Positions 8,650-64,000 of a stretch of 64,000 nt of DNA are shown piece by piece; positions within the stretch are counted from its first letter, which is position 1, and each line of letters starts with the position of its first letter. The translations under genes were made by a program, and so were the position numbers. The notes below the pieces were generated by a model. That model worked only from the letters and a program-made list of their open reading frames with translations, was not told the origin of the DNA and searched no databases. The DNA is taken from positions 124,001-188,000 of the forward strand of contig QPGO01000132.1 in NCBI GenBank assembly GCA_008632985.1, written 5' to 3'. This stretch comes from Psammoneis japonica. Lineage: Eukaryota.

Positions 8650-9825
8650 TCGAGCTCGATTTTTGCTGCCGTGTGTGTGCTCGACCATTCGCACAACGAG
8701 TTCGTGGTGCCTGCAGCAACGATTGTCTCAAACAAAAAGATGTGTTAATCCAAACCTCTGCTAACAAACACAAGGGAGAACAGACAGTTTGCAACAAACG
8801 CAAACAGAGCACATCAAGGGCTGGGAGTGAGATGCAGTTGACACCCTCTGCTTTTCGCCAAGAACCTTTCTTCGGCCAGCCCGATGGCGGGGCTGGAAAG
8901 CGCTGCAGACTCGCCCTTTCTCAGCTTTGAAATGAGTTGCCATTGCCTCCAAGATTAAAAGCGCTTTTGTTGTTTTCTGTTGGAGTTGATCTCAACTCAT
9001 CATGGGGCCTCACCTTTGCAAAACACAAGCCAGGAGTTTTGCAGCTCTTCTTCCAGAAGTTTGATCTCTTTTGTGCTCATGACCTGATGGCTCCACTGTG
9101 GAATTCTACACAACAGTGACGCGCTCGAAAAAATTCTGAGGTGGCCAACGAGGTGGTGTCAGAATTCTGGTGTCAACCAAAGCCAGAGCGTCACCACTTT
9201 TGGCATCAACAAAGGGACGCGTCATTTTTAACCCACAACAACTGAGGACCACTTTTCCCTGGCTGGCCAAAAGCCCGGAACAACGTTCCAACTCTGAGGG
9301 TGCAGCGAAACCTCCTCAACACTTTCAGCACATTTGGTTGTCACCATGTGCTGTTGCATTGAGCTTGTGAGAGCAGCTGAGCGTCCAAAGAGTGGGCGGA
9401 TTATCAGGTTCTAAAGCTTTGAAAAATTGCAGGAAACCTTGAGAAATTAGTTGAAAAACTGAATTTTGTGAAGGGGAGGCCACAGCCAGAAGAGCGCCAG
9501 TACGAAAGCAGTGAGTTTCCCACTTGTTTTACTGCACGCAAATTCGGTTCACATTAACTAGTTTGTAGCTAGTGAACATTCAATTTCTCTCGCATGACAG
9601 TCCACAATGTTGCATCACTGAAAGAGTCATTTGCAGTGTGAAATGTCCCAGTAATTTGAGCAACTCGAAATTCCATGGTGTGAGCCGATTTTGTTGTTTA
9701 GTGACACTGCCACTAATGCAGGAACAACCAAGTGGCAGAAGCACGTTTGCACGCATAACTGACATCATGGACAACATCCCAAAAGCCTCCTCTCCCAGTT
9801 TTGCAGCTGCACAAATAAACATTTA
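8650..9825. mobile_element. TpA-depleted degenerate repeat/transposon relic
   Basis: Nearly all remaining TA are in YTA or TAR contexts (gttaat, gctaac, tctac, tctaa; one gtac at ~9500); no recognisable protein. Confidence 0.45.
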
Positions 9826-11022: not shown

Positions 11023-12599
11023 TCTTATTTTAGTGTAAGTACAGCAGTCCCGCACCATTGGGCATCGGATGCAACAAAACAAAGAAAAGCAAACGAAAGG
11101 CGGGCAATTTTTCACCTGGTGTGGGCAGAGCGTTTTGATTGACTCGACTCGAGCGAAGCGAGACTCGTCGTCAACACGCCAAAGCAACCCGGATGTTAAA
11201 GTGTTGGAAGGAACACAAAACAGCATCAATGACCATGGGCGGAACCGGCAGTGGTGGCAGCAGAAAGGGCTCTGGCAGAAGAGTGGCCCACATCAAAGGA
11301 CAAGGAATTCTATTGGGCCCAAGTGTGATGCCAAAGAAGAGCTGGCATGAAAGCCAAATGCCTGGCTGGCCTTGGCCATTGTGTGGAAGCACACTCCAGA
11401 CAAGAAAGCAAGCATCAGAAAGCAGTCATGGCAGAGCAGCAAGTGGCCAGAGCAAGGGAAAGGCAAGAGGCTTTAGAGCAAGAATTGATTGACAAGCAAA
11501 AAAGAGATGAGGAAAAACAAACTCAGCAGGCCTTGGAAAATCTCAAGGCAGCTGTGCAAAAGAGCATTTGTGTGAGGGGACCAAAAACAGAGGAAGGGCA
11601 CAGTCAGGCAAAACAGGATGTTTCCAGAACAAGCAAGATGCAGAGAGCATTTCCAATCAAGGCAAAAAGCAAAAGCACACTCAAGCTTCAACAGCAGCAG
11701 TCCAAACAGCGGTGCAGTCGCAGCTCCTCGCAGCCAACCCTGCAGCAGAACAGTGGTCACAACAACAGAAGTCCAAATGGCGCCAGCAGCCACAATGATG
11801 GCAGTTGCAACAATCACAGTTTCCACAATGTTGGTTGTCACAGTGGCAGTTGCAATGGCAGTGGCTGCAGCGGCAGCAGTTGCAGTGCAGTCCGAGTGGC
11901 AGCAGCCGCAATGGCGCCAGTGGCAAACGGCAGCAGTCACAACAGCAGCGGTTGAAATTGCAGCAGTCACAACAGCGGCAATTTCAATGGCAGAAGTTGC
12001 AATGGCAGCAGTCAAAATGGCAGTGGTGGTGGCAGTCATGATGCCAAGAGCAGTCAACCCACATGCGCCAGCCAGCTTTTGAGGTCAGCGTGCAGCCCCC
12101 CTGCTGCGGCCGAGATTTTGTGCCCACAGCATTGAAAGACACTCCCTTCCTTGGAAGTGTCAATCAATGTCTCACCAGGGAGCAACCCTTTTTGGCTCCA
12201 CTTGGCTGTCTTGATGTTCAGAGGTGGGGGGGGCCAAGCCACACAAACATCTTTGCAAGAAGAAGTTGCGCCTGGGTGCCGGCCGCTGCAGCCAATGAGC
12301 AACATCCCATGCAGCCACTCAAATGTTCAGAGGCAAAAGCAACCTCATTTGCCAGCTGTTCCCAGACTTTTCCAAAAGTGGCAGATTGCAGATTGACACA
12401 ACGAATGCTCCATGCCCTTGAGTCGCCCCTTGTCTCCCCTCTTGACATGCTCCAGCCTCGCACGAACCAAGGCGTGTGAACAAAAATGACACTTGTGTGA
12501 AAAATCTTCATTGTCTGAACAACAAATTCTGCACTCTTCAATCTGTCAAGAATGAGCAAATTGAAACATCACAGTTTTGTGAAAAGAGCCTGAACATCA

Positions 12600-12925
12600 G
12601 CAAAAAATCTCAGAAGGAATGTTTGTCAATTTTCGGGCTCTTTCTCTCTCACCTCTCTTTTTTCTCATGTGTGCGCACTTTTCTGAGTGCAATGAAGCAT
12701 GTCATGTGTCAGCATTGTTGGTGGGAAAAGTTTGGTGGCAAAGCAACATCAGCTGTTCAAGTTGTGAGATTCCAGATTGTGGATGACAACAAAATCACAG
12801 AAGGAGTTTTCGCTCATTTTTGGACTTTGTCCAACCTGTCTCTTTTCATGGATGTGCTGCTTGTCAGAGCAAAATGTGGCATGCAATGCATTGGCATTGG
12901 AAAAGGTTTGGTGGCACAATCTAGC
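12600..12925. repeat. Degenerate ~190-bp direct duplication (subterminal-repeat-like)
   Basis: aaaatctcagaaggaatg...tctcatg...aaagtttggtggca (~12603-12740) versus aaaatcacagaaggagtt...ttttcatg...aaggtttggtggca (~12791-12916). Confidence 0.5.
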
Positions 12926-13060
12926 ATTGGCTGTTGCTGCCATCATGTGGTCTTTTTCCTGTGTTGTTTTGAGCGAGAGCTTCACGTTCGTTCGTTCTTC
13001 ATTTCACAGGTGCTTCACTCGTCTGGATGTCGTGCATCTGAATTCACTGCACTGACAACA

Positions 13061-13345
13061 ATGACTCTTGTTGAGCAATTGATCGATTGTCGTCATGCAG
13101 CGTGCAATGCATCGCTTCATGCAGCCAACAAACTCCCCTTGTGCAGCTTGTGAAGTCATGACTCTTGTCAAGCAATTGATCGATTGTCATTGTGCAGCGC
13201 ACAATGCATCACTTCACGCAGCTGATGAACTCCCCTCATGCAGCTTTTATAAAGTCACAAGCTGCACAGAGCAGGTTGTTGAATCATTGCGTCACACAGC
13301 CAACAAACTTCCCCCGTGCAGCTTGTAAAGTCACAAGCTGCACAA
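13061..13345. repeat. 97-bp tandem repeat (2 full copies plus a partial third) with reciprocal TG/CA differences
   Basis: atgactcttg...gaagtc at 13061 and 13158; third partial cagccaacaaacttcccccgtgcagcttgtaaagtc at ~13297. Confidence 0.85.
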
Positions 13346-15799
13346 GGGGAACTTGCTTGACGAATGACCGTCTGCTTCAATGGTGTCATTGTGTGGCTTT
13401 CCCCACACTGTTTGACGAGCTGCCGAAAGGCAAGAATGATGATCAAGATCACCATGATGGTGACTGATGACTGATGACTGATGAATGCGATGGGCGATGG
13501 GTGGACGGACCCCATTGACACCAAAAAAATTGACCTGATGCTGAACAAGTCAATTGTGAGATCATGTCTTCCATGCACAAGAATCTGCAGGGTTCTTTTA
13601 AAAGCCAAAGCCAGCTCCTGCTGCTGCCATGGAAAGGCCAAAGAACAAAAATGGCAGCTGCAATCTCTGCTGCCATGACTCAATGCATCTGCACCGCTCC
13701 CACGGAAAAACAACATTTTGTGTGGAAAACCACCAAGGGCAGCTGTTTTCCAGCAACAACCCAGCCAACCAGCATCACCTCAAGCATGAACATGTGTGCA
13801 TCCATGACCTCAAGCTCAAGGATGTCATGCAGGCCCAAGCACATGACTGCTGAAAAGAGTGAAAAAAGCCATTTTTCCAGGAATTGACTGACATTGTCAA
13901 CAAGCAGTGTGGTGCGCGCTTTCTCAAAAAAGAAGTCACTGGCCCCAAGCTGCAGCATGAACTGGACAATGAAGCAGCCCACAAAAAAAAGTGCAGCCAA
14001 GCCTTGCACAAAATCAACACTGCCATGAAGCAAGCATTTTGGAGAAGTGTGCTTGCTGCAGCAAGCAAACACATTCTCTCCAGTTTCTTCATTTGGGGTG
14101 TGGTTTCAGTTTTTGTCCCTGGGGCAATGCAAAAGAATGTTGCTGTTCACAAAACAGCACATGAAAAAAAGTCACGTAAAACAGTGTTGCACACAAAATG
14201 TCCCTTGCATCTGTGTGTGTCCAAATGGTCACCTCAAAAGTGCAGCCTCTTGGGACAAATGTTGGATTGTGTCTGGCCTCCGACACAAGCCATGAGAGGC
14301 AGGCAACATTTGACATCTCCACTCACATCAAATCCACAAGTTTTTGACTTGCAGCTGCAACTTGTCATTTTCCCAGTCTTGCACCATGGCATTTTCTGCT
14401 TTTGTGGCTGGGGCCCTCCTCATGGCGCTGGTGGAGCCCCCATCTTTTTCAGCACAGCACCGGTTCTTGCACTGGCAGCAGCTCCAATCTCCTCAGCAGG
14501 AGGGGCACTGCATGATGGTTGAGTGCTGATGGGTGGTGGCATCAAAACAGCAAACACACCAGTGGGCCCCACTGCAGCTTTTCTGTCATGACAAAGACAG
14601 ATCGGGCCACTCAGCTCTGCCATTGAGCTGTCAATGACCACGGGGATTGTGAGATCACTGGCAAGAATGGCAAGAGGAGCCCATGAGCCAGATCTGCTCC
14701 TTCTCCTTGTCCAACAAATCCTCAAACTCCTCTCAAAATTGACAAAACAGGAACGGTGCTCCCGACTTCTTTGGGGGGGAGAGTCTTCCAAGTGTCTCTG
14801 GCCAAAAGGTGCAGAGTGTGTTTTCTTCAAGGGCAGTTCCGCGTGTGCTGCTCTCCAGGTGAATTTGGACTTCAACGTGTCTCCAATGCAGCTGTTGGAG
14901 ACTGCTGCATGTGTCCACCTTGAAGGCAGCCCTGAGACAAAGGTCAAGTGATGCTTGCTGTGGGGCATGCCAGGATCTTCAGGAGGGCTGTCCTCACCCA
15001 TGACATGCACGGCAGTTGCTGAGTCCTCATCAAAACTCAACTCACAATGGTTGGCATGCCTCCCAGCCAGAGCAGGCATGGGTGGTCATGGTGGACCATG
15101 GCAGCACAGAGGGAAACAAGCAAGGGTGGTGACAGAACATGAAGAACAAGAAAGCTTGAGAATGGTCTTGCCATCACTGTGGTTTGTTGTTTTCTCCTTG
15201 GTCAAATTTGTGATGAGCATGTTCTCTTTGCCTGTGACTGTCACCTGCCTTTGCAGGGATGGCCTCTCTTTGTGCAAAGCTGTGAAAAACTCAACAGGTT
15301 TGAACTTTTTTTTTGTGTCTGAGTGTCCAATCTGACACTCACACTTGTTGTGAAACTCCAAATGTGCTGCACGTGTTTTGTGCAAAGAATGCCAAAAACC
15401 AACTTTATGACATTTGCCCAGACACCAGTGTGGAAAAGAAGGTGATGTCAGGCAAATTGACACTGTGGGACCCAGCCAGCAGTTCATCAGATTTTTTTTT
15501 GGGTGGAGTTGGTGAGGTCTGCACATTGCACAGGCAACTCCTCTCCCATGAACACACCTGCTTGGCAATTGTGCAGACAATGGCCAGGCTTGGCTCCTTT
15601 GGAGTTTGGAGCATGGCACCATGCACCCACCATCTCGCCATCTCAGAGCATCAAGAACACTTTTTTTGTGGTGCATTGCTGACGCAGCACCGTCTGCAGT
15701 CCTTGCAAGTTCAAAGCTTGTGAAAGCTGCCCTCTGCCTCAATTGCAAGTCCCATCCATCAACACTGAGTCTCCTCCTGCAGCATCATTTGATGCAAGA

Positions 15800-16560
15800 A
15801 TGAACAAGAAACTGACTTGGACAATGGCCCAGAAGACTTTGGGAATGATGCTGAAATTAACTCTCTGCTGATGGATGAGCTCAAGACTGGTGCCTTTGGT
15901 GACAAAAGAAATTTGAGATGGAGGAAGCACTCCATGACTTCATCAAAACAAAGCTGGGATTGCTGACTGCCACGTCTTCCTGTTGGGCAGAAATTTGTGC
16001 TTGAGAAGGCCAGCAGATCAGCACAACTGGTTCACATCCAGGACCATTGTTAAATTTGCCTCATGGCATGGAAGATGGGGGGGCACATCACACAGGAACT
16101 TGCAACATCCAGTCAACAACAGATGATCATTGATGCTGCAGCGCAAGTTTCTTCAGCTCTCAACATTGTGTGGGCCAACCAGGATGGCGACTTGGGGCTG
16201 CACAATGATGGTGCAGTTCCCAACATTGTGGTTCAATTCAGTTGGAGAAACAAATGGGGGCATGAAGAGCAAGCCACAAATGTCACGATGAACAATGCTG
16301 CAGAAATCAAACAAGGCCAGCCTGGCCTGACTGCTTGCCTGCATGTTGGTTGTCTCATCAAAGTCCAACTCAAAAGAAATGTGAACATGCTGGTGGCAAA
16401 TGTCTCAAAAGGAAGCAAAAAGACATGGGAGGCCTTGATGTTTGTTGCTTGCTCTCCACAGCATCACAGCTGACAATGCAGTCAATGGAGCCAATTGTGC
16501 CAGCAAGCCCATGTGTGCTCTCCAGGGCTCCAGGTGGTCAAGATCACACAGCAGCATCAA
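15800..16560 (+). pseudogene. Mutated relic of a putative Uma2/PD-(D/E)XK-like endonuclease-fold gene
   Basis: PNIVVQFSWRNKWGHEEQA...VGCLIKV resembles a PDxV(I/V)QFSW..K.YEE.A...GYLIKV motif recalled from diatom proteins; GH and GC sit where GY is expected; frameshifts and stops upstream. Confidence 0.35.
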
Positions 16561-18594
16561 CATTTCCCAACAGATTTGGGGAGCAGCTTTCAGACACCAA
16601 TTTGGTGAATGTTGATGAGATGGATGGTGATGCGGTGTCAACAAAAACATCTTGCCACCTGGAGAGCTGTGCCATCGACCACACCCAGATGTTGGCCAAA
16701 GTGCTTTGCTTGAGGAGAAAGGACAGGGTGGCCTCAACTTTGCCCACTTCCTTTGCTGAGATGTGTGCCACACCAGCTCTGTTTGCTGCACTCTGCTTGT
16801 GATCATTTGCATGAGGCCAGTCTCCAAAAATTGCAAGCTCTGCACTCAACTCTCCACTCACTCCTTGCCAGTGTGTCGTGCAGAGGCATGTGTTGATGAA
16901 AATGTGTCAGGGTGTCATGACATGCCTTCCTTGGCTGAGCTGCAAGACCAAGCAGCAAGCCTTCCAAAGCAAGCAACTGCCACTTCTCAAAGTGCACAGA
17001 GTGGCAAATCCAAGTGCGGGGAGCATTGACAGGCTTTCAAGCATGCGGCACAACAACCGGCCTGGCCTTGCATTTTACACCACTGGTGCTGCTGGCGGTG
17101 CATCTGACATTCCATTTTTCCCACTGCCATGGAATTCCAGGCCAGTGGTGAGTTCAACGTGGCAAGCACCTGTGGAGGCCACTTCTCCTGATGACAGCGC
17201 CTGCTCTCTGACTCTCGTCACATTTTTTTGGTTTGGTCTCCAAGAACCTCCTCATTTTGCTGGCCTGGTCCAGAGATGAGGCAGTCGGCTGGCCTCTTGC
17301 CAAAACAGGAACATGGATCAATGAACTCCATGTGACAACATTGGTGCAAACCAGAGGTGCTGCTTTTTGCAGCAAACGTGTGCTTGGGGCAAGACCTTGG
17401 CCGCCACAGCTCAGCGGCTGCAGTCAAGAAAACGAAACAGTGGAGAAGAGCTTCACCTTGGAAACATCATGATGACACCACTTGTTTTGGCAGAAGTCCA
17501 GCATCCATTGGGCACAGTGGTGCCAGCAGACCAACTCCATCTGGCAGGATGCAAAAAACAAAAAAACGAAAAACTGGATGATGACTCCATGATTGACGAA
17601 AGCGATGGGCGATGGGCGGATGGACCCAATTGACGTTGATGTTGACCCGGAATTCCGCACTCCACATTGCCGTCACTCTCTCTCTAGCTAGAGAACACAT
17701 TGAACATTACGTAGAACTCGATCGTTGCACACCGTAGCATCTATCTACAGTGCGGTAGACTACGGTAGTCGGTGCAACTCATTGCATTTGAACGCAGTGG
17801 GGATATTTATGTTGAGAACCTTGTACAACATGCTCATGGACAAACGCACACAACGACAAACAAAAGTTACGGTGCTGCTGGTCACAGCACAAACAACGCC
17901 GCGGCTTTCATTATATTACCAACGAAACAATTGAAATTGAATGTAAGTTGATCGTAACAGCTATTGCTTGTGACAGGCTATGAATAAACATTATAAATGA
18001 TGCACAAAACTATGATCGATGGATTGTTTGCTGAATAAAATCATCGCCAAGCGCCAAGTTTCGCTTCGTGCCACTTTTCGCCTTTATTAGTAGTTCATAG
18101 CTACCCGCTATTCTTTCGCGTAGAAAATGTACTGAGAATCACGTAAGAGCTGTGCACACGCTGTTCCGTGTGCGACAGCGCGAGACGAGAGGAGCCGCTG
18201 GCGCTGAAATTAAATCATGTTTGCAAGGTTGTGGTCTTGACTCTATATTCATTTGAGGGCATTCTAAACTTATTGTAAATTGCGTTTTGCATTCTGCTGT
18301 CGATCTGTTGGAGAACCATAAAGAATCGTTGATCGTTGCCGTACCGTCTGTAGTGTCCCGCTGTGCTACATAGAGCGACTCCGTGTAATAAGGAGGACCC
18401 TCTAGGTTTGTTGTTCAGGCCTTTGCTAGCGGTAGATCGTTTTAGCTTTGGTTGTCCATTTTTAAGTTTTATTTTTCTCTAAAACTATGATCTATTTACA
18501 GATCGCTTTTGCGTAACATATTAGACTGGGACTCTAACCTTTTCCAATACTATTTTCTCTGATCCCTGCAGGATACATGTAGCGGGAGTTAGGC

Positions 18595-27768: not shown

Positions 27769-27899
27769 GGTCAATTAAACGGTGCTTGGTCAGTTCGCGG
27801 CTCTGCTTTGTAGACAGAGAGAACGCTGAAGGCCATTGCCAACTGCCAAAGGCGGTTGGCGACTTAGGGCCCTACATCAACTCGATTATCTTTCAGGGA

Positions 27900-29560
27900 A
27901 TTTCATGGTGGGAGGTGGGAAGGACGGACTCAGAGGAAAAAGGAAATGGCGGGCTGGTGCATGCCATGCAATGATGTGATCGATCTGTGTCTCATTGCCC
28001 ATTGCCTGCGCCTCTTCAATCAACATCTTGGTGGTTCACAAATGATCTGATGCAATTGGTGAAGAGAGTGTGGTCCAGTCTTTCATTGTTTTTGTTTGTT
28101 CATTGTTCAACCCCCCCTTGTTCTGGTTGGTCGTCTCTTCCTCTTGACATGTGCTGACGAAGCTCCAGAGAGGCGAGGCTCAAAGGTGTTTTCATCCATG
28201 AGAGTGGGCAAGTCCTTGCAGACCAGCTGCCTTCCTTTGGAGCTTTGCCATCTTCAAAGCTCACTCTCAAGGCAAACACAGCAAGAGACAGTGTCACATT
28301 GGTTTTGATCTTGTCCTGGTTGTTGAGGCAACCAGAGAGCTGACTTTTTGTTGTCCCTGTCAACACAGCAGCAAACTGAGCAATGCTGCCAACTGATGTG
28401 ACAGCAGCTTCAAGGCAAAATTGGCAAAGCAAACTTTGTGGGATCTCACTGGCTGTCATTTTTGGCTCATCACAAGGCTCCAATTGAGGCAGCCAGAGAG
28501 CAGATGCTTTGTTGTTATCTCCATCAACAGTGGGAGTGTCCTGGCTGGGGCAGCCAGAGAACAGACACTTTGCCATCCCTGCAAATGGTGGTGACCTGAT
28601 CAACATTGATGGCTGACATGACAGCTGGCAGCTTCAAAGCAAAATTAGCAAGACTCAAAAGGTGACATCTGTTGTCTTGTCAACCATGGTTTGTGGCTCC
28701 TCACATCCTTGGGGGGGCGGGATGCAGCCAGAGAAGAACAGACTTTGTCATCCCTGTTGACACCAGCAAATTGAGCAATGTTGTCAACTGGCACAAGCAA
28801 CAGCTTTTGAGTGAAGTTGAAATTTCACAAAACAAAGTTTGTGGGGTCTTGCTGGCTGCAGTTTGTGGCTCATCATGAGGTTGTTCCGGGTGAGACAGCC
28901 AGAGAATGGACACTCTGTTGTCTCCATCAATGGGGGTGGTGTGAAGTGGCAAGCAGCATTGAAAACTGAGGCTGCAGCAGCAGTTCAACCATGAAGAGAT
29001 GGTTTGTGCTTTCACCTGCCAAGCACAAAAGCTGTCTTTCCTCCTCTTGCCTCCTTTGGAAGAATTGACTTGGCCGCCCCCTTCTTTCCAGCAGACATTT
29101 TTGAACCTTGTTTGTGCTTGCTTGCTTTGCTGGCAACAGCAACCATGACAGCAGTGATGAGAGTGACAAAACAGAGAAAGTTGCAAGCTGGCAAGGCTTG
29201 GCCACACATCACAGCTCCCCACAAGAAGCGCCAGAGCCATGGGTGATTTTTCTAAAGTTGAGTCCAGATCCCATGGTCTTGTGGTGTGAGAAGGAAGAAG
29301 GCAAAGTGCAGAGCAGTTTGTTTTCCATGAATGCGGCTTGCATTGTCAACTTTTCTGAGCTCTGCAATCCTTGGTTTTACACCAACAGCAGAGCTCTGAG
29401 AATTGGCCAGAAAGGGTCAATTTTGCTGGGGCAAAAGTTGTTGTGATGAAGGTGATGAAGAGCGCTGCTCAACACCCTTCTGTTGAGGATTCAACGTTGT
29501 TCTCAACTTCTTGCTCCTGAGCTTGATGACTCATTTGACTTGGTCACCATCACTGAACAA
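27900..29560. mobile_element. TpA/CpG-depleted block containing degenerate direct repeats
   Basis: Only residual gttat, attag, tctaa, ttttac seen; repeated cagccagaga...tctccatcaa and ccctgt...gcaaa(c/t)tgagcaatg at ~28330-28640 and ~28725-28935. Confidence 0.6.
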
Positions 29561-29702
29561 GAAGCAAGGTATGATGAGGAGCAAGAGAGGCAGGCGTGCT
29601 GCCCTGAGGTTGTTGTGGTGAAGGTGAAGAAGAGCCCTTCTGTCGAGGATTCAATGTTGTCAACTCCTTGTTCCTGAGCTTGACGACTCATTCGACTTGT
29701 TC
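29448..29702. repeat. Direct repeat (~85-95 bp x2) straddling the block edge
   Basis: gaaggtga..cccttctgt(t/c)gaggattcaa..cctgagcttga(t/c)gactcatt(t/c)gactt at 29448-29545 and 29620-29702. Confidence 0.85.
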
Positions 29703-29889
29703 GATGCAAGAGGAGGTATGCGTGCCGCCCTGGTCAGGGGTGCACCGCATCAACCTCACATCACCTCATCAACCTCATCTTCAATACGGTACATTAATCA
29801 AAACTGGAACTGTGACGCTGCGTCGACCACCATCTTGCTTCTTACGGTACCTTACAGTTACAAAGACAAAAGGAAAAGTCAAGAGGAAA

Positions 29890-31391: not shown

Positions 31392-31826
31392 TCCGAATTG
31401 AGCAGTCGAGATGAATACCCTCTACTCTACTGTAGCTAGCCCTAGCTACTAGATGGGGTAGGGCCCTAGTTTGTGTACAAGCATAGATTACCGGTACTAC
31501 TCTGGTATCACATCAGTAGTCCGTTTGACGACAACTTCCGGCAATTTTTACCGCTCGTGAAAAAAGTTTGCACAAGATCGTTTCTAACTAGCCCTAGCTA
31601 CTAGATGGGGTAGGGCCCTAGTTTATGTGCAAGTCCGAATTGAGCAGTCGAGATGAATACCCTCTACTCTATGTAGCTAGCCCTAGCTACTAGATGGGGT
31701 AGGGCCCTAGTTTGTGTACAAGCATAGATTACCGGTACTACTGTGGTATCACATCAGTAGTCCGTTTGACGACAACTTCCGGCAATTTTTACCGCTCGTG
31801 AAGAAAGTTTGCACAAGATCGTTTCT
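31392..31826. repeat. Recent ~193-bp direct duplication (242-bp period) with an intervening partial copy; contains CTAG-rich island
   Basis: tccgaattgagcag...gatcgtttct at 31392-31585 and 31634-31826; tagccctagctactagatggggtagggccctag present three times. Confidence 0.9.
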
Positions 31827-41627: not shown

Positions 41628-41781
41628 AAGGAATCCATCAAATTTAACTCGAGCCGGAGGCTTTAAGAACATCAAGATTTTTGAAGGCCAGTCTCGCTCT
41701 TGATAAGGAATCCATCTGCTTTAACTCGAGCCGGAGACTTTAAAAACGTCAAGATTTTTGAAGGCCAGTCTCGCTCTTGAT
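41628..41781. repeat. 77-bp tandem duplication overlapping the 3' end of the STAND ATPase gene
   Basis: aaggaatccatc..tttaactcgagccggag..caagatttttgaaggccagtctcgctcttgat present twice. Confidence 0.9.
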
Positions 41782-44852: not shown

Positions 44853-47519
44853 GCTCGAGCCAAACTGGAAACTGGATCCCCTGGTAGAGAGGAAATTTTG
44901 AACTTTGCTCAATCAATGAAATAAACGAGAACAGTGAACAGCACCATCAAGGTTCACGCCACGCTTCACTCCTGGGAGCACTGACATCTTCTGATGACAT
45001 TTTGACATTGGATGTGCGTTACTGCACCATAGCGGGGCGGGGGGGGGCTTGTTTCATGTAATCGTTCCTCGTAGACGACTACTACACGAGTGCCTGCGGG
45101 GTGACTTCTTTTTTCGAAAAGCTGCCCCGACATCCAAAAGCCTGTGGTATGGTTCGGAGTCGCAGAGCAGTCTTTTTGTCGTTTTGTCGATGACAATCGC
45201 TGATCGATTGCCCTCTGTCATTCTCTGACTCTGCTCTTCTCTGGCAGATGATGCTCCTGACCGAGCACTCTGGTTTTGGTTGTGGCGCAAGCCATGAGCA
45301 CCAGACCTTGAGCCAGGGCAGGGCTGGCAATTCCAGGAACCCGGAACTGGAGCTCTTTGCTCTGGAAAGCCGCAAAAGGTGGGTGGCATGGGCTGCAAGC
45401 AAAAAATCACTCTCAACTCATCAACGTGCAGCACACAATGTTGACAAAAGAAAAGAGAAAGGTTGCTGTGGCTCCTCAGGTGCTCACAGTGCAGGTGTGC
45501 AAATCGTCTCCGAAGCAGAGCAATGCAAAGCAGACCCCCACCCACTCACACAGGGGGGAGGCACAGACCACCATCTCCTGTTGGTCTCCGATCTGCACCA
45601 AATTTGTTTCCATCCACAACTCACAGATGAGACTTCTGCACAACCAGAGCATTTCTTGCACCGCCAACCAGTTTGATGGGGAAGGCCCGTCAAACTGCAG
45701 AAGTCACACATGCACGATGAAAAAGGAGCAGCCCCCCCCCTTCCCACCACACGGCTGGGCTGCTTGGAGTGAAAAAGGATTTTCCAAAGTCATGAAATGA
45801 GATGTGGAACAGGTTGGGCCCAGTTGTGTGCCATGATCACCTTGCTGGGGATGCAAGCAAAATCTTCAAAGCCTGCCACAATGTGACTCACCGGCGGAGG
45901 CATGACTTTGACTTGATCAGAAAATTTGTCTGTGATGATCAACTTTGTCATTGTTGATGTGAAGTGTGTTGAAAGCAACTGGAAAGAACCTTTGAAGGCA
46001 ACTGTGTTCATTGTGACCCTCCAATCACTGTTGAAGCTGCTCAAAACTACAGTCTTCATCATGGCAACACCCGGCTTGCCAACCTTCGGAGCACAGGCCA
46101 AATTGTTGACTTTGACTTCATGGGAAATGAAAAGCACCTGCATCATGGTTTGCTGTCAATTCATCAAGATGGCAGATGCCATCAACAGATCAAGAATGCA
46201 ATGTCAAGGAGGGAAAGATGGACAAACTTGGAATTGAAAAACAACACGATTGGCTCTCAATTGCATTTGCAGCGAAGCTCTTAAAAGCAGATGGTCCTGG
46301 ACACAACAAGGAGTGGACTCAAGTGGCATTTTGAATGGAGTCAATGGTGCATCTGTTCACTTAAAAGACAACAACATTGAGCTGCCAGTGGGTGCACCAG
46401 GAGCAACACCTGAGAAGGACAAAAGTGCAAACCATCACTTCACTTGCACAAGACTCAAGGAACAGAAAAGCATTTGTGTGCAGCCTTGAATGTGAGCTCC
46501 CTGTCATTTGGCACCATTGTCTTGGCATGTTAAATGGCCATCTGCCCCCCTCTCCTGCAAGTCCAAATTCCCAGCAAAGACTTGACGACATGGTCAAAAT
46601 GGCGTGAATGAGGTCATTTGTGTTGGTGCCAGCCATTTTTGAGTCTCTTCTGGAGAAAGCCAATGTGCCCCAAAGAGAAGCTCTTGAGTCAAACATCAGT
46701 GACCAGGAGTGCTGTTCTCATGAACAGCTTTTTTGTCAGATGCACCTCCAAGAAGCACCAGCAATCCAATGGTGTGGCAACACTGCACTGGAACATCAAA
46801 GAGTGCAGTGATGTCATCCACAGAAGGAGGCCAGGCAGAATGTCTGTGCAAAGAGTCTCTCCACAATCTGAGAGAGTCTGTGTGTGACAGGAGTCACTGA
46901 GATTTTGTCACCCTGCCATGATCAGAAAGAAAGAAGCTGACCAATCAAAAGGAAATGGGACAAAAAACAGCAAAGGATCAAAACAGTCCCATGCATTGAT
47001 GTGGACAAAGGCCCAGCAGAAGTGTCCCCTCAGATGGTGGTGTGCATCATGGCGGGCATGTGGTGCCCAGCCAAGGTTGAAACAGCATGTCACAAAACAT
47101 CATCACTGCACTTTAATCTCAAGCTCCACTCACACCAAAACAGTCTTTGTTCCTCTCACTCTGCAGTTGACTGAAGCTTGGTGCCACAAGTCTTGTGTGA
47201 GGCTGCTCCCAAGAACAGCACCATGCTGGGGAGCAAGCTGGCTTCTCCACCATCCACTCTACAACAGGTGTGAGAGAGCAACACAACACCCACCTGAATC
47301 TGTCCTGCAATTCATGGAGGCCAGCTGAACTTCTGAAAAACAAGCAAACAGAGTCAGGCTGATTCCCATTTGTTGATCCACCCTGAGTCTGGCAAATGCC
47401 AGGGAGGTGGGCAAACCCCCTCAAACAGATCCACACAAGCTTGCAAACCCTCTCTGGCATGTCCTCATGTTGTGTTGGTGCTGTCAGGACTCCAAAGACA
47501 TCAGAGCATGCTCAGAACC

Positions 47520-49100
47520 TTCACAGCTTCAATGAACAACAAAGATGCACAGGCAAAACAAGCAGCAGGGCTTCAGCAAAGCAATCCCCCATGTGTCTTT
47601 GCAGCTGTCATGTCCCTTTTCATGCTCCCTTGTGTGCCATCTGTTCATGGAGTCCACATCATCTGAATCTGCAACACTCAACTCTGCAGCACAGGCTTTT
47701 GTTGATGCTGCCAACCTCTCCCAGCCACACCCACATTCTTGACTGCCAGCCTGAAGCTTTCTGGGTCTGCTTCCAGTGCTTGTTTCACCAGCAACTTGAG
47801 TTCTAAGTCAACTTCTCCCAACTCCAACACATGGCCCTCTGCATTGCAAAAACCTGGCCCATCAAGCTGCCCAGCTGGAGCTTTGACATCTGTCAAACCA
47901 CTTGGCCATGCTTTGTGGTCTGTCAAGCGATGAGCGCACATCTTTTGCCACTTGCCAGCAACAGCTGGGGGCACAAACTGGGGCCCCTCTGCTGGCTGGA
48001 ACCTGTTGCATCATTCTCAGCCACAACAGCACAGTTGCAGAACCTGATGATTGCTCTGAATCTTAGCTCACTTTGTCAGATCTGTTTTGAGATCAATTTG
48101 CTCAAGTGGAGAGGATTTTTGACTGTGACAGAGCAGAAAGTCAGGCACTGCAGACCACAGTCTGTGAGATTGTTTTGGCAAATCACTGCCAAAAAAGATT
48201 GACAACACTTTGCAGCATTGCCCTGACAGCATCATTTTGATGAGCTGTTCATCTTTCATCTCTGTCAAAGGTCTGTGAGTGACTGTTGCTTTCAAGCTGT
48301 TTGCACAAGAAATGAGATGTGCCAGACAGCACCTTGGCCAGCAAAGCAGTTGGGTGCTTTTGTGACATCTTTTCCACACAACTTGCTGATGATGGTGATT
48401 TGCAATGCTGAAAGAGGTTGTTGGGGGGGGATCTGAGCATTGCAGAAAAGGCAAAAACTCACAGTGAGAAGTGTGTGCCACCATCAATGCACACATCATG
48501 ATGCCCAAGGTCAAATGCCAGCTCTGGAGGTCATGCAGAGCACTTGTCAAGATGCATGCATCAACACACAACCGCGCACTTGTGGCATGCACAAACAATC
48601 TGGTGACTGACCAACATGACATGAAAAAGGCAAAACAACAGATTGAACAATGCAGGCAGCTGTCATGGCTTGTGTGTGGTCACACAAAAAATGTGAGTTG
48701 CCACCCAGAACATTTTTAAGAACTTGGAGATCATGATCATGTGGCAGCAAGTGCCCAACAGCATCAAGTCCCTCTTCAATGGGCACATGCAAAAATCATC
48801 TTGCCATGAAGAGGCTGACAAGAAAATGTGTGCTTGTTGGCCAAGTCATGATCACACTCACCAGCTCCCTCACCAGCACCAATGGAAGCAAACAATCTAG
48901 AGAGATGCAGTCAACTGGAGTTGATGGCACCTCAAAGTTGCTCTCCACATCACATCATGAGCAAAAGATGCACCCCATCTGCCCATCTTCAGAACTTGCT
49001 CAGCACACCTGTGGCAGTTGATGGTTGCTGAGCCCCTGCTTTGAACAATGTCTAATCTGCTGAATTCAGTGCAAAGATGCTGTGCTTGTGAAGGCCAGGG
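47520..49100 (-). mobile_element. Degenerate tyrosine recombinase of a DIRS/Ngaro- or Crypton-like element
   Basis: DGPGFCNAEG..L..QALEADP..ECGCGWERLAASTKA..DDVDSMNRWHTREHEKG matches the recalled YR pattern GPAF.D..G...YG..RS.RRG..T.A...D...NRWR..E..KG; frameshifted. Confidence 0.55.
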
Positions 49101-49800
49101 AGGCAAGTTTTCATTTTCTCAAGTTTTACAAAGATCACCAACGCGGCCAAAAAATGTGATGTCAATCTGTTCTGTCAGGCAGGCAAGCAAAAAATCATCC
49201 ACTTGTCAGAGTGATGGAGTGCCTGCTTGGTGCTCAATTGAATGCACCAGAGCACATGCACTTGCAACAAGCACATTTGTTTCTAAATGGCGGCTTCAAG
49301 TCAGCAAGAGCACCAGAGTTTGTGTGCTTTTCCCACAAGATGTCCAACTCAAGATGGCCCTGGGTGGAGTGCAGCACAGCTTGGGTCAACCTTCTTGCCA
49401 AACTTTCCTTCATGCCATGACACACAAGCCAAGTCAGCCAAAACAAAAACAGGCTTGGACAGTTCTCTGGAAGATTGTGCATGTGGATCATTGGCATTGC
49501 TGGCACACAGAACAAACAACACAACATCCTTGCACCAAGAGCAACACATGGTTGCTGACTTGATTGATCCATGCACAATGAAGAGCAGGCAGACATGCCC
49601 ACTTGTGGTGCAAAGTGGGTGCAGCTTTCTTGGAGCCATCACCAACACATTGCTGGGGGGGGGCAATGCTGTTCACCTTGTTTCTTCTGAGGGAGCACTG
49701 GTGCTCAGATGTTTGTGTGCACCATGAAGTGCCACTCTGGAGGTTGGGCCTGTGGTTGTGGATTGTCCACTTGTGCCCCATGATGGGTGATGGACCAAGC

Positions 49801-50038
49801 CACCCTGCACAAGAAGTCTGGAATGTTGAACTGCGTAGAAACCGTCGTAGAATCAGCACCAGGGTGGTCAAAAAAGTCTGGAATGTCCGATTTTGACAAA
49901 AAACACACAGAATCTGGTGTAGAGTCAGTGCCAGGAATGTCCAGAAAAACACGAAAAATCCCGCCATTCCAGACTTTGTTGGCTTGTCTGGCACAAATTC
50001 CATGCAGGAATGACATTCCAGACTTTTTGTGTCGGGCA
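49801..50038. mobile_element. ~240-bp MITE with terminal inverted repeats and probable (mutated) TA target-site duplication
   Basis: Left caccctgcacaagaagtctggaatgt versus reverse complement of right tgcccgacacaaaaagtctggaatgt (21/26 identical); internal inverted pair aaagtctggaatg (~49873) / cattccagacttt (49965). Confidence 0.75.
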
Positions 50039-53000
50039 GCAAGCTCATTTGTCACATGTCAAGAAAGGCAGCACAGCACCCTGGCGCTTGCTGCCATTGC
50101 TGCTGAAGGCCACACTTGCAAATTGGGTGGCCCTGTGCTGGCTCCATTGACAAGCACAAAGTGATCTCTCCATCTGATGCTGCTTGCTCCATCAAGCAGT
50201 TTGCAAATGCCAAATTCTAAGTTTCTTTGAGATCCCCCCCTCACACAGTGGCGAAAAAATGCCTGGACTCACAACAGGTTCACCTTGCACTGGAAAAACA
50301 TGGCGCCTCAAACCAGATGCATTGGATGACAAGGAATTTGCACCTGAGCTCCCTCTTTAAGATTTGCAATTGACTGCTGCCTTTGTCTGCCCTGATGAAA
50401 AGCTTTTTCTGAGTCAACAAGAGATTTCTGTGAGCACCAACATGAAGCAAGAACTTCTCAACCTGTTGCCAAGGAAGCAAGAAGCTGAGAGCTTGGTCAT
50501 TCTGCTCATGGAAAACTTTGCAAACTTGCCACTTGGCCCAAGTGGGAGCAAAAAGGGAGTGACAACAGTTTGGTGCTCTTGGCATGCATGACCCACCACA
50601 GCTGTGGCCCAAGCAATGTCAACATGGCAGCAACACAGCCACACAGACAATGTTTGTCAGCTCTGCAGGATCAGATGTGCCACCCTGTTCCACACACTGC
50701 AGATAAAAAGAATTCATTGGGAGCTCATGCAGCAGGAGATTGTTCACACCTTTGTCAAAACAGACATGTGCTGCAATCTTGACCTTGTCTGTCTTGGTGT
50801 CTTGCCAAAGAATTTTTTCATGGCACTTTTAGAAGGAAACCAAGGAGCACACCCTTCTGTGTGTTTGTCCAAAAATTCAATGGCACGCAAAACACACAAG
50901 CTGATGAACCCAAACTGCTTGGTGCCCAAAGGTGCACAATGGCAAGCTGAAGTTTTCAATCTTGCCCACAGCAACAGCACTGGTTTTGGTTTGAGCAGAC
51001 TCTTGGCCCTCACAAATGCACAGCATCTCTCAATCAAAAGATGATGGCAGAAGGCTTGTGGCCAAAATTGAGCCACATTTCAACAATGAGATGTGGCTGT
51101 TCTGTGGGTCCACATCATTGAGCAGGAGTGCTGGTGCCAAATGCTGGACAAATGTCACAGCCAAGTTTCTTGGTGCTGAAAAGGTTGTGGATGTTGGAAC
51201 CCCACACATCTTGCCACCTTCTTGAAAACCCAAAACACACACTTGTTGCAACAAAACTCAGAAAGCTCTTTTTCAAGATTTGGCAAAGCTGAACAGGCTC
51301 CTTTTTGAAAATTGGGCAACACTGACAGAGTGCTGATGGCAAGAGCAACAAGCCAAAGAGCTTCCCACAAATTGGTGACAGTGGATGACACATGTGCCAG
51401 CAAGAAAGAGTGAGAAAAGAAGAAAGTTGAAAGTGAGTTCTTGATGATCTGGCATCAGTCTTGACAAACTTGTTTTTCATCTTGAGCACACCAAGCTGAG
51501 CAAGCGTCAATGACAGGGGGTTGCCATGAGCAACTTTCAGCCCACCCATCAGGTGCTTGTTTGTGTGGCACAAACAATGCCCCTGGTCATCATTGGCACA
51601 CCACAAAACAGATGCTCTGTCTTAACTTTCAACAGCTGAGAGTGTCTTGAGGATCTCAGCAGCTGCACATGTCCATGTCACAAGCTTCAGAGGACTCAGG
51701 TGAACAATGCAGCAGCAGCAGGTTAAAGCCAGCTAAACAGGGAGTGTCTTGTTCTTGCTGGAGATGGGCACAAAAGGCAGCTCATGTGTGTGCTTCTTCA
51801 AAGCTGGCTGGTGCATGCCAAAAAGATGCTTGGGGCGGGGGAGCACAGCACGCCACACCAGGAGATGTGCAACCCCATTGGGGGTGGCAACAAAGAATGT
51901 GGGAGAGCACTTTGCTGTGACAAAGAACACACCATGAGTGGCAGTTGCTGCTTGATTGGAAGCAGAGCATGTGCACCACTCCCTGAGTCAGATGTCTGGC
52001 ATGTGGGAAAAATCTGCACAGCACTGTTGTTTCCCACAAACTTGCAAAAGAAGGAAACTTCTTGACCGCACCCAGACTGACTGGACACTTCCTCTCTTTT
52101 CTCCACCTCTTCTTGAGAAGCAGTGTGCGCAGATTGATTGGCTGGGCCTGAAGAACCTGAAGTGGAAATGACAGGGCTGTTCCATGAGTGCTCCAACCAA
52201 CCAGCTTTCAGTGCTTCTTCTTTGCTGGTGACGCAGGAGGGTCAACATGCCACATGACAAAAAGATTTTTGAGTGAGCTCTGACACACCAGGTGGAAGAC
52301 CAGCAGACACCACCCCAGAAAGACTGAGTGTGGCTGCTGGGTGGACAACCCATGGAACTGTGGTTGCTGGCTTGCACATGCAACAAAGCGCACACCCAAA
52401 ATGAACATGCCAGGAAAAGCGAAAAAGTTTGACATTTTAAGCAACACCCTGTGTCTTGCAAAGGTGCAGGTTTCTCGCCCACAATCAAACAACACCTTTT
52501 GTGAATGAAAGGCATCTGTGTGCATGCTGGCACCATGGCATGGACACATGTGCAAGTGTGCACATGTGTGCTGGCCAGCCGCTGTTTTGAGCAATGAGTT
52601 CACACCTGCTGTGCCACCAACAGAGGAGCTCTGGGGAAACCAAAGCAATGCTCTTGCTGTGCTGCAGAAGCTGCATCAACTGCTGTGCTGCACACAGTTG
52701 CTCTCTTTGTCCATTTCTTCTCAGCTGTCTTGGTCGAACAACCTCCTGCTCGCTCCACGAGAGAGAGCTGTTGCAAGATCAACTTGCTGCTCATTGTTGG
52801 AAGCCTCCTCTGGAGTCTGGAGTCAAGTGGGGATCAATTTTTTTGACAAGCACCTTGTTGTGCGATCCGCTTCGAAATCAGATCTGGTGTGGTCTCTGCA
52901 TTGCACCGCGCTTGCTTGGCCCTTTGGTTGCTAACTCCCGGGTGCATGTTGCGTGCCTCTCTCTCCTCATCTCCGTCCGTCCGGTGCCTCATTTTCTATC

Positions 53001-61538: not shown

Positions 61539-62006
61539 TCATAAGACACTGGAAACATCTTCTGCATCGTTACTGCACGTTAAATCTGGGACCATGACAT
61601 GCATCAGTTTGGCCACGTATGGGGTCGCACAAAAGGTCTCCTCCAAATCCCGAACAGACGTGCAAAAAGCACAACGCTCGCCCGTGGATATTTTTGTATG
61701 AATGCAATTTTTATACTCGGGCTCGTGAAGGCACTTGCTGAAATCCGATTCATGTCTTAGAATCTCCTCGTCTGACTTGCACTGCCGTTGTGGGGAAGAA
61801 ACGAGTCCTTGAGGCACACAGAGCGCGTTGCACCAGCTGCATCCGTGGGCTTGATGACACGCGTCCGCGTCGGTATGAGCAAGGCATTGTTTGAGGTGAT
61901 TTTCGTCCGTGTCGTTTCCGCGCAAGGTTGCCTGTGCAACACTGGCTTCATGCAAGAATGCAATCCAAGTGCAGATGTGAAAGAACAGTAGCGGCGACTT
62001 CATCAT
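61539..62006 (-). CDS. Small secreted Cys-rich protein (PSI-like C..C.WC repeats)
   Basis: Signal peptide followed by TLRG; CL..D..AC..GCSWC..LCVP and CL..NC..CAFC..FC. Confidence 0.65.
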   Translation of the reverse strand: MMKSPLLFFHICTWIAFLHEASVAQATLRGNDTDENHLKQCLAHTDADACHQAHGCSWCNALCVPQGLVSSPQRQCKSDEEILRHESDFSKCLHEPEYKNCIHTKISTGERCAFCTSVRDLEETFCATPYVAKLMHVMVPDLTCSNDAEDVSSVL

Positions 62007-62445
62007 GGTGTCTCTAGCTGTATTATGCCTTGCGCGCAGGTGCCCCCGCGCGGACACACAAGAATTTTTTCGACTCCCTCCGACACGCGCTCGCTAAAAA
62101 AAAAACCGAAAAACGACTCCGGATGGCATCTTGTCGTTGATTGTAAGTAATTGGACGATTATCGTGATAGTTTGACCAGGCGGAAACGCTACACTAGTCC
62201 CTAAGATTATATCACTTGAAGGTCTTGTGAAGATTTGAAGAGACACTCGAGAAATCTACCAGGATTTGTTGTGCTTGGATGTCACCGAAATGCTGCACTT
62301 TTCTGCGCAATTCATTCTTTGTCGAATCTCCATCTTCCTCCCTTGCAGTCGCACCCATCTATTCTGATGATTCAGCATTACACGGGACATTGTGTGGCTT
62401 GAGTAGGCTGTAAGTAGACGAGACATTGTGTCATGAAAAAACAAA

Positions 62446-63567
62446 ATGGCCAACAACATCGATTGCGCCGCTGCAGCCCAGTGCGGACTTGCTGTCAATG
62501 ACGATGGCGGAACGCATGAACGTGGGAGGGCATGTGGTGTGGAGAAGAAGATCGAAGTTCAGAGGGTCTGTCAATCGCTACAAGACATGTCAGAGAGTGG
62601 CAGGCCAAATCTAACAGAAGTCGCTCGGGTTTGCAGGGTTGACCGCAAATTTGCAGTCAAAGTGGAACGAGAACTTGACTGTTGCGGCCAAGTGCTTCAC
62701 CCGCGAAAGATTCACCAGAAACGAATGTGTGGTCCAGGCGTCAACACAATTGACAGTCTAGATGCTTTTGTCCTTCTGACTCCACATCTGGACGAGCCAA
62801 GTCACTCGCTGTCTGGCTGTTGGGAGAATCTGTGCAACCTCACAGGAGCAGTGGTTTCGAACGCTGCCATCAGCAGATTCTGGAATTGTGCATTTACAAC
62901 AAGCGGGAAACTTTGCAAGCCAAATCTTGTTCCCTGTGATAAATTCAAACCCGACAACATCCTACGAGCATGCGAGTTCATGATGGTTGTCGCTGAGGTT
63001 GATCCACGGAGGGTCAAATGCGGAGATGAGAAGCTGCTGAAAGGTTCAGAAGTGTGTTGCTGAAGGACAAGGCGAAATGTGCTAATGGGGGAAGTCCCAC
63101 CATCCTTCACATCCTCTGATTTTCGCAACACATGCCCCATCATCGGCTTTTGCGGCATCGACACAAGGACCCACCCTGTGCGTTGCCAGATCCATGACGA
63201 GCCGAATGATGCGGAACAGTTTGCAATGGAGATTGAGCATGCAGTGCATCGGGGCTTTCTCAGAGGTGGTGACATCCTTGTTCTGGACAATGCAGCCTGC
63301 CACGTGCGTGGTGAAAATGCGGTTCTTGAAGAATGGCTGTGGACGGAGCATGGCACATTTGTTTTGTTTCTTCCAACGAGGACCCCTGAATGGAACCCTG
63401 CAGAACTTGTGTGGCGTCAACTTGTGACACAGCTCAAGCACCATCCGATCTGCAGGCTCCGCTCGCACACCGAGCATTCCACCGCCTGTGCTGCCCATGA
63501 CGTGTCATCCCAAATTGCGCATGACCAAGTCTTCTGCATGTGCAGAGCATGTGGACATGTGTCTTAA
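62446..63567 (+). pseudogene. IS630/Tc1-mariner superfamily DDE transposase (D-D38-E spacing), hypermutated, with in-frame TGA at 63061-63063
   Basis: HTH (LTEVARVCRVDRKF), GDEK, LVLDNAACH, FLPTRTPEWNPAELVW; the two ORFs are in the same frame; no Tyr in the whole protein. Confidence 0.88.
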
Positions 63568-64000
63568 GCTTGTTCTACAATAGAATGCTCCACTGTAGAA
63601 TGCCCTGCAACAGATTGAGGTGCAATTGAAACTTCCAGGCCCCAGGATTCAGCCCCCGAACACCCGGGTTTCAAGCCCACTCCAATGACGACAACAAAAT
63701 GCCAGCGCAACTCCAGCTGTTGGACATGTTGTTTGAAGGGCAAACAGTCATTGACATCCTGACTAAAACCTCTGAGCAATGATCAATGGTCATGGCGAGT
63801 CAGAATTACAGCTGTGTTCCGCCTCAAGCTTCCGCGTGCAACAGGGGGGGTCAAAATTGCCCATTTGTCACAGCACGTGGAATCTACGTAGATTCTGGTG
63901 TTGACCTTGCTGCAGGCACAGTCAGCAAATGACCCGACAATCACAGCACGCAGGGCCTACGTAGGTCATGGCATTGAACTTACCGTTAAGTCTTGTCAGT

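Follow-up and report, generated by a model that had tools for sequence, protein, structure and literature searches.

Erasure of TpA dinucleotides ahead of CpG decay in a multi-copy transposase pseudogene of the diatom Psammoneis japonica

A decayed transposase reading frame of the IS630/Tc1 (DDE_3) type lies at positions 62446..63567 (+) of a 64,000-nucleotide stretch of the diatom Psammoneis japonica (GenBank assembly GCA_008632985.1, contig QPGO01000132.1, positions 124,001 to 188,000; the whole stretch is called the window here, and all positions are counted within it); it has lost most of its TpA dinucleotides and every Tyr codon while much of its CpG is kept. The frame comprises 373 codons and a TAA stop, and encodes 26 Cys and 18 His. 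Among 5.8 billion proteins searched, 21 relatives were found at E ≤ 0.001, two of which have Thalassiosira exigua as their named source; the best of them (P0002) aligns at 60% identity across 99% of the length, collinearly and in one frame, and the copy is therefore free of frameshifts. Its internal stop, TGA at codon 206 (63061..63063, +), is aligned with Arg in the nearest homologues, which fits a CGA>TGA change. A first-pass annotation of this DNA had the coordinates and counts right (373 codons and TAA, no Tyr, 26 Cys, no frameshift and one TGA, plausibly from CGA).

Pfam DDE_3 (PF13358), which the full-length homologues of the copy bear, matches at 63160..63444 (+; E 1.7e-12; 47.9 bits vs a cut-off of 28.6), over residues 33-127 of the C-terminal half, and no Pfam family was matched by the N-terminal half. 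The invariant alignment columns D194, D281, E315, and E320 are all retained; we take these residues, in the motifs GDEK, LDNA, and NPxE, to be the acidic catalytic residues of DDE_3. The domain match and the acidic columns are those of IS630/Tc1/mariner elements; unlike a working member, the copy is not an intact frame, since it has the internal TGA and keeps none of 14 conserved or inferred ancestral Tyr, and it is without detected inverted repeats: no convincing terminal inverted repeats with a TA target duplication were found within 61800-64000 (the window ends at 64000), nor any near the copy in a transition-tolerant purine/pyrimidine coding. There is no second copy within the window (tblastn with five homologues as queries), and self-BLAST of the window gave six small repeat pairs only, none of them like long terminal repeats. 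Of the 46 loci found in a metagenome scan, a single one, L001 at 42% identity, spans the gene; a viral-contig scan gave only six short, irrelevant matches, and a search of shorter proteins gave no near paralogues (five matches, all at most 59% identical). We rejected the ideas that the genetic code is variant here and that the protein functions without Tyr, because invariant Tyr columns are replaced (Tyr is lost even where 15 of 15 homologues have it) and a stop is present.

The composition of the copy separates the two dinucleotides clearly. Its 1122 nt contain eight TA, an observed/expected (obs/exp) ratio of 0.12, and 53 CG (0.70), with TG at 1.67 and CA at 1.52, against 0.56 (TA), 1.00 (CG), 1.14 (TG), and 1.13 (CA) in the window background outside TA-poor domains (46.7 kb, intergenic DNA included). 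L001, an intact relative with a 412-codon open reading frame (ORF) and 14 Tyr, has TA at 0.59 and CG at 0.83. At the background level 36 TA would be expected in the copy (Poisson P(≤8) = 1.8e-8), and at the family median of 3.8% Tyr the probability of finding none in 373 residues is 5e-7. CG is mildly low relative to an obs/exp of 1.00 (53 vs 75.5 expected; P = 0.004) and is not below the level of the intact relative (P = 0.12). About 80% of the TpA is thus gone (0.12 vs 0.56 or 0.59), and 16-30% of the CpG (0.70 vs 1.00 or 0.83). The TpA-poor domain around the gene extends over 62416..63806 (its end approximate, set by eye), where 12 TA are left in 1391 bp, not one of them in 63084-63564; within these bounds TpA depletion is coupled to a gain of TpG and CpA.

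The direction of change can be read at individual codons. A residue counted as ancestral if both nearest relatives have it, or if one of them has it together with most of the other homologues; this gave ancestral states at 331 columns, 121 of them changed in the copy. Each of the 15 homologues in the alignment contains 10-21 Tyr. At the eight columns with Tyr in at least half of them, the copy has Cys (5), His (2), or Phe (1), and at the 16 columns with Tyr in P0002 or P0003 it has Cys (9), His (4), Asn (1), Phe (1), or Ser (1). The 14 ancestral Tyr columns are now occupied by TGY Cys (8), CAY His (4), AAT (1), and TTC (1). The annotation's proposal that Cys and His stand in place of Tyr is therefore upheld column by column (12 of 14), the homologues having Tyr and not Cys or His there, whereas several of the motifs quoted in its favor are weak. 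Tyr occurs in seven of 15 homologues at LVP-C-DKF, in six of 15 at DNAA-C-H (Ile, Val, or Asn in the rest), in four of 14 at CG-H, and in three of 15 at SEV-C (both nearest relatives among them; Phe or Met in the rest). TE-H-G has Tyr in one of 14 homologues; at RA-C-EF one of 15 has Tyr, and the nearest relatives have His opposite the Cys. A conserved Tyr (14 of 15) lies two residues past that Cys and is Phe in the copy.

Arg codons were lost less completely. Among 25 ancestral Arg, 15 are still Arg (7 CGN, 8 AGR), three have changed otherwise, and seven have become Gln, His, Cys, or the TGA stop, as CGN>CAN and CGN>TGN changes would make them; Tyr loss (14/14) thus exceeds the loss of presumptive CGN Arg (at most 7/14; Fisher P = 0.006). 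The 82 differences that amount to a single nucleotide step comprise 19 A>G (12 in TpA), 10 T>C (9 in TpA), 7 C>T (4 in CpG), 10 G>A (7 in CpG), and 36 transversions, so that 21 of the 29 inferred non-synonymous A>G or T>C steps fall in TpA. Transversions and out-of-context transitions would be expected between families that are 57-60% identical.

Both products of TpA change, TA>TG (12) and TA>CA (9), are interleaved along the copy, with no strand clustering (runs test z = 0.13). The clustering of TG vs CA by strand that is expected of a processive single-strand deaminase appears neither in the copy nor in the large TA-poor blocks described below (z = -0.46 and -1.32, with -2.25 in one block and -4.88 in a background segment), in a test that is uninformative at saturation. 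The interleaving bears on an origin at the RNA level, in which ADAR-like A-to-I editing at UpA in double-stranded RNA of the transposon would be followed by reverse transcription into the genome; ADARs are known from animals only. A 5′ U is a favored ADAR neighbor, as cited by Mettrop et al. (2026, bioRxiv 10.64898/2026.01.13.699255), and the most complete erasure does coincide with the reading frame; a DNA transposon, however, has no RNA copy step, and a single reverse-transcribed strand would not leave TA>TG and TA>CA interleaved, which makes RNA editing the remotest of the explanations weighed here.

The copy shares its TpA-poor state with other parts of the window. Merging of 300-bp windows with at most one TA delimited domains that total 17.3 of the 64 kb (27%), with pooled values of 0.04 for TA, 1.80 for TG, and 1.72 for CA. 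In all domains of the hypermutated kind TA is at 0.02-0.06, while CG spans 0.04 to 0.65: the domain delimited in this way at the gene (62964-63575) has TA 0.06 and CG 0.65, a small domain at 8763..9106 (+) has TA 0.04 with CpG half kept (0.39), and the older blocks are those at 11312..17688 (two adjacent domains; TA 0.02-0.03, CG 0.21-0.34, TG and CA 1.7-1.9), 27874..29716 (TA 0.05, CG 0.19), and 45084..52996 (five sub-domains; TA 0.04-0.05, CG 0.04 to 0.36). The survival of many CpGs in the copy, unlike in the older blocks, was a point on which the first-pass annotation was right (0.70 vs 0.04-0.39). One further domain, at 35530-35858, is TA-poor without being of this kind (G+C 0.61, CG 1.5, TG and CA below 1), and sits in a coiled-coil-like ORF.

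Block edges are sharp, with TA rising from none to 4-10 per 100 bp within 100-200 bp. Untargeted decay, by which context biases at TpA and CpG acting throughout the genome would bring any old neutral DNA to the same end, would draw support from a background TA that is already low and from older blocks that have lost all coding signal and hence are old. It would have to accommodate the sharp edges, the normal TA and CG of the other 46.7 kb, and a copy that is collinear with, and 60% identical to, intact relatives and yet has lost about four-fifths of its TpA; on this evidence it is improbable. In the older blocks none of 61 ORFs of at least 100 aa reaches a Pfam cut-off. The blocks at 11312-17688 and 45084-52996 are filled with many overlapping ORFs of 100-235 aa, in six frames and without a family match; because TAA and TAG are erased there, long ORFs are to be anticipated in every frame and carry no meaning.

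The 52 TA that survive in the domains lie between a 5′ pyrimidine and a 3′ purine more often than those of the background do: TTAA makes up 25% (4% in the background) and CTAA/TTAG 25% (9%), and none of the 52 sites is in an ATAT, GTAC, or ATAG context. Either the mutator has a preference for certain flanks, or some of these TA are new. Surviving CpG in the domains is enriched in CCGC/GCGG and GCGC.

The relative timing of the two losses follows from the same domains. Among 128 bins of 500 bp, all 23 with CpG below 0.25 have TpA below 0.15, eight have TpA below 0.15 with CpG of at least 0.25, and none combines low CG with normal TA, except for one at the window end (TA 0.38, CG 0.52). TpA erasure is thus uniformly complete and CpG erasure graded, from which it follows that TpA loss precedes CpG loss. 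The first-pass annotation had proposed that TpA loss runs ahead of CpG decay and is separate from it, and that the copy is an early snapshot of the process; both proposals stand, the CpG loss of the copy being clearly smaller than its TpA loss, at codons as in composition, with its TpA erased and its CpG decay only begun, and the bins giving the same order. What the annotation called faster mutation may be an episodic burst rather than a steadily higher rate.

The footprint recurs among the protein relatives of the copy, of which 170 were compared (the best 150 of 1027 matches in a representative library of 1.84 billion, and the 21 above, with one in common). Three are Tyr-free fragments rich in Cys and His (P0150, P0209, and P0255), and two are low in Tyr (P0222 with one and P0123 with two). 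P0123 is 88% identical over 211 residues to the intact P0004, whose 10 Tyr appear in it as five Cys, two His, one Arg, and two Tyr; the other differences from P0004 to P0123 are mostly Ile>Val, Thr>Ala, and Lys>Glu, each of which is an A>G change. The replacement of Tyr in P0123 implies that the same process acted on another sub-family.

The repeat to which the copy belongs extends beyond the reading frame, with ends placed by contigs at ~62022 and 63641-63646, where paralogue contigs diverge. The 5′ flank (62022..62415), which may or may not be part of the element itself, is repeated and is depleted in neither TA nor CG (16 TA, obs/exp 0.56; CG 1.14), with a depth in X1 (the public run described below) comparable to that of the ORF; this flank also overlaps the promoter side of a neighboring minus-strand gene. 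Beyond the 3′ end of the frame, a 32-bp island at 63565..63596 (+) holds four surviving TA, the TAA stop included, inside an otherwise TA-free stretch, and is overlapped by a tandem 15-nt motif (63574-63588 and 63589-63603, +). This motif region may be a terminal, transposase-binding site of the element, for which it is a candidate; no inverted upstream partner of the motif was found. The small domain at 8763..9106 ends, at 9092-9106, in the same 15-nt motif, there with a TA>TG change, and a weak DDE_3-like remnant was noted just upstream (8673-8783; one-subject tblastn E 0.004). The domain probably represents an old fragment from the 3′ part of a related element. A similar motif occurs in a loose end of a contig from X2, another public run.

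Paralogues of the element were recovered from X1, which contains 0.48 of the sampled 31-mers; runs X2 and X3 contain next to nothing of the stretch, and no RNA run is listed among those that contain it. From X1, 200 contig pieces match 62000-64000 at 80% likeness or more (46 at 99% and above, 53 at 95-99%, 55 at 90-95%, and 46 below 90%), and their word depth, when summed, exceeds that of an exact single piece many times over; the element is therefore multi-copy. Transitions predominate among the places of difference (210, namely A>G 44, T>C 59, C>T 54, and G>A 53, vs 51 transversions). Site-by-site classes rest on 40 of the 266 difference rows, 35 of which concern X1 and 19 of which lie in the ORF. 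An interchange of CG, TA, TG, and CA accounts for 16 of these 19. In seven the copy has CG and the paralogues TG or CA, so the copy retains CpGs that its relatives have lost, and in one the copy has TG and a paralogue CG. In four the paralogues still have TA where the copy has TG or CA, and two sites (four rows) have TG in the copy and CA in paralogues; these two classes of site imply independent hits on different copies. The left flank (62022-62334) differs from the ORF in its spectrum, with transversions in nine of 12 listed rows, and at two listed flank sites TA is kept in the copy and CA found in paralogues.

These sites are what separates repeated mutation from inherited composition, that is, from a TA-poor state that arose once in a master or donor element and was copied by mobilization in trans. 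The family is indeed multi-copy, and its putative terminal motif keeps TA as if the ends had been selected for mobilization; inheritance nevertheless needs independent hits at the four sites with TA in paralogues, at the two with TG vs CA, and at the two in the flank, and the P0004/P0123 pair, from an unrelated sub-family, shows the same changes. A single origin is accordingly judged to be improbable, if slightly less so than untargeted decay. The paralogues bear equally on a technical origin, by which heavily modified bases of silenced repeats, namely 5-methylcytosine (5mC) in CpG and some altered T or A in TpA, were miscalled as transitions. Such miscalling would explain why hardly any changes other than transitions are seen, and why these fall on two palindromic dinucleotides, and it would fit with the fact that only about half of the sampled 31-mers occur in the one public run containing the stretch, and that at several listed places no matching X1 contig has the letter of the window. 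It is contradicted by X1 k-mer contigs of paralogues that show differences of the same classes, with 46 of the 200 pieces at least 99% alike to the window, by Tyr-poor relatives among proteins of other assemblies, and by the signature in the chlorarachniophyte Bigelowiella natans, called by Mettrop et al. (2026) from Illumina data of mutation-accumulation lines. Miscalls at two dinucleotides would also fail to explain the lost coding signal of the older blocks, and an artefact is very improbable as a result, although not quite as remote as RNA editing.

Targeted hypermutation of selfish DNA is textbook knowledge for fungi, as repeat-induced point mutation (RIP), and for the APOBEC and ADAR systems of animals. 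Fungal RIP changes C to T at CpA, creating TpA and AT-rich products. The domains of the window resemble those of ascomycete RIP in the transition-only hypermutation of repeated mobile DNA, the dinucleotide preference, and the sharp limits; they differ in that TpA is destroyed and that their G+C stays at 0.47-0.53. A RIP of the fungal type is therefore rejected, its direction being wrong (TpA is removed here, not made). Many diatoms do encode a DNMT4 that may group with the RIP factor RID, and diatom transposons carry DNMT5a-dependent 5mC, according to Hoguin et al. (2023, PMC9998398). Decay driven by 5mC would produce the change of CpG to TpG and CpA seen in the older blocks, where CpG falls as low as 0.04, and the CGA>TGA stop of the copy fits it; such decay cannot remove TpA, and CpG loss in the window always trails TpA loss.

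The closest known counterpart comes from B. natans. According to that preprint, 231 of 302 nuclear mutations in mutation-accumulation lines fell in two integrated viral regions, 230 of those 231 were A>G or T>C, the GC-biased ones were all on TpA, and hypermutation occurred in 11 of 15 lines; DDE endonuclease and reverse-transcriptase Pfam families were overrepresented among coding sequences low in TpA, and an ADAT2-like adenine deaminase was proposed by the authors (Mettrop et al., 2026). The window agrees with that account in A>G and T>C changes at TpA, in the coupling of TpA loss to a gain of CpA and TpG, in clusters on the kilobase scale, and in having foreign or mobile DNA as the target, here a transposase pseudogene that is multi-copy in X1. 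It departs from it in its host (a diatom, hence a stramenopile, and not a rhizarian), in a multi-copy transposon as target in place of single-copy viral inserts, in an erasure that is far more complete (TA 0.02-0.06 vs 0.45 in the nucleocytoplasmic large DNA virus region of B. natans), and in a CpG loss that accompanies that of TpA; the preprint mentions neither diatoms nor CpG. What is read in the window is solely a historical footprint, whereas de novo mutations were scored in B. natans. The full-text literature searched, which includes few subscription journals, yielded no account of diatom repeats depleted in TpA, and none of 5-hydroxymethyluracil or of JBP-type enzymes in diatoms.

The gene at 62446..63567 is, on this evidence, a dead copy of a multi-copy DNA transposon of the IS630/Tc1 type in a diatom nuclear genome, altered by a process that acts on DNA, on both strands, and turns TpA into TpG or CpA, by an A>G change that appears as T>C if the opposite strand is hit. 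Such conversion would remove every Tyr codon, by TAY>TGY to Cys or by TAY>CAY to His, and would also erase TAA and TAG stops, so that a long open frame says little about intactness. A second process, slower or later, converts CpG to TpG or CpA; it has only begun in the copy, where it probably made the CGA>TGA stop, and has gone to completion in the older blocks. The cause of this second loss would most likely be 5mC deamination on methylated transposons, as known for diatoms.

We put the probability that mobile DNA in this diatom has undergone region-targeted TpA-to-TpG/CpA hypermutation, ahead of CpG decay, at roughly 0.8; the four alternatives set out above, even when taken jointly, are unlikely. 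Several points weigh against this interpretation. Eight of the 29 inferred A>G or T>C changes lie outside TpA, and although these may be ordinary divergence from relatives 57-60% identical, many of the changes from P0004 to P0123 are first-position A>G, with a context invisible in protein; for both reasons a strict TpA specificity is not established. The ancestral residues themselves come from proteins 57-60% identical, so that some Arg>Gln and Ile>Val changes are perhaps ordinary divergence, and five of the 21 TpA calls (at Ile, Leu, and Val) rest on a TA-bearing codon picked by parsimony. The repeated flank at 62022-62415 and the 32 bp after the reading frame keep normal TA, contrary to a simple mutator of the whole repeat. 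Some of the TA losses may be common to paralogues, and so inherited and not made in place. Finally, the older blocks are assumed to be transposons, and no coding remnant is recognizable in them.

A role in host defense aimed at mobile or foreign DNA is inferred for the hypermutation, by analogy with what has been proposed for B. natans. As to its chemistry, if the process is real, deamination of adenine by an enzyme, at TpA and on either DNA strand, would be our first choice, albeit a tentative one; it is favored because this is where the evidence leads in the one system in which the signature has been studied experimentally. The alternative, to which the window lends no support, would be that thymine in TpA is oxidized to a base that mispairs, T and 5mC being alike as 5-methylpyrimidines. 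More speculatively, a single chemistry might attack 5-methylpyrimidines at palindromic pyrimidine-purine steps, whereby T at TpA and 5mC at CpG would both undergo transition. With similar reserve, it may be suggested that diatoms possess a DNA-editing defense that is RIP-like but chemically opposite, that erases TpA in bounded domains on the kilobase scale separately from 5mC-driven CpG loss, and that is the same system as in the rhizarian and so old within the stramenopile-alveolate-Rhizaria (SAR) group; this broader proposal is rather less probable than not.

The case for a defense by targeted hypermutation in large algal lineages rests on a single 2026 preprint, to which the window adds a diatom host, a transposon target, a saturated erasure, and a trailing CpG decay. 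One copy, caught midway, places TpA loss before CpG loss and lets the direction of change be followed at individual codons. Were the process general, it would explain why old diatom repeats escape protein and profile searches, and the long spurious ORFs created by TAA and TAG erasure would be a warning for gene callers; obs/exp of TA and CG set against that of TG and CA would serve as a simple test for hidden mobile DNA, and a search for the enzyme would be testable in transformable diatoms.

The remainder of the window is of ordinary composition and holds host genes. Two tandem duplications lie in DNA of normal composition, at 31392-31826 (194 bp twice, 98%) and 41628-41781 (77 bp twice, 92%). 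Close to the element, a 172-aa ORF at 61539-62057 (-) has several Cys and a hydrophobic N-terminus resembling a signal peptide, and may encode a secreted protein. The neighboring host genes are eukaryotic, with long ORFs (kinesin, SNF2-RING, C2H2, and others); the best of the kinesin relatives is 65% identical, which points to a diatom with sparse coverage in the databases, and of 85 such relatives the seven with a named source are without exception from diatoms, for example Thalassionema, Seminavis, Cylindrotheca, and Nitzschia.

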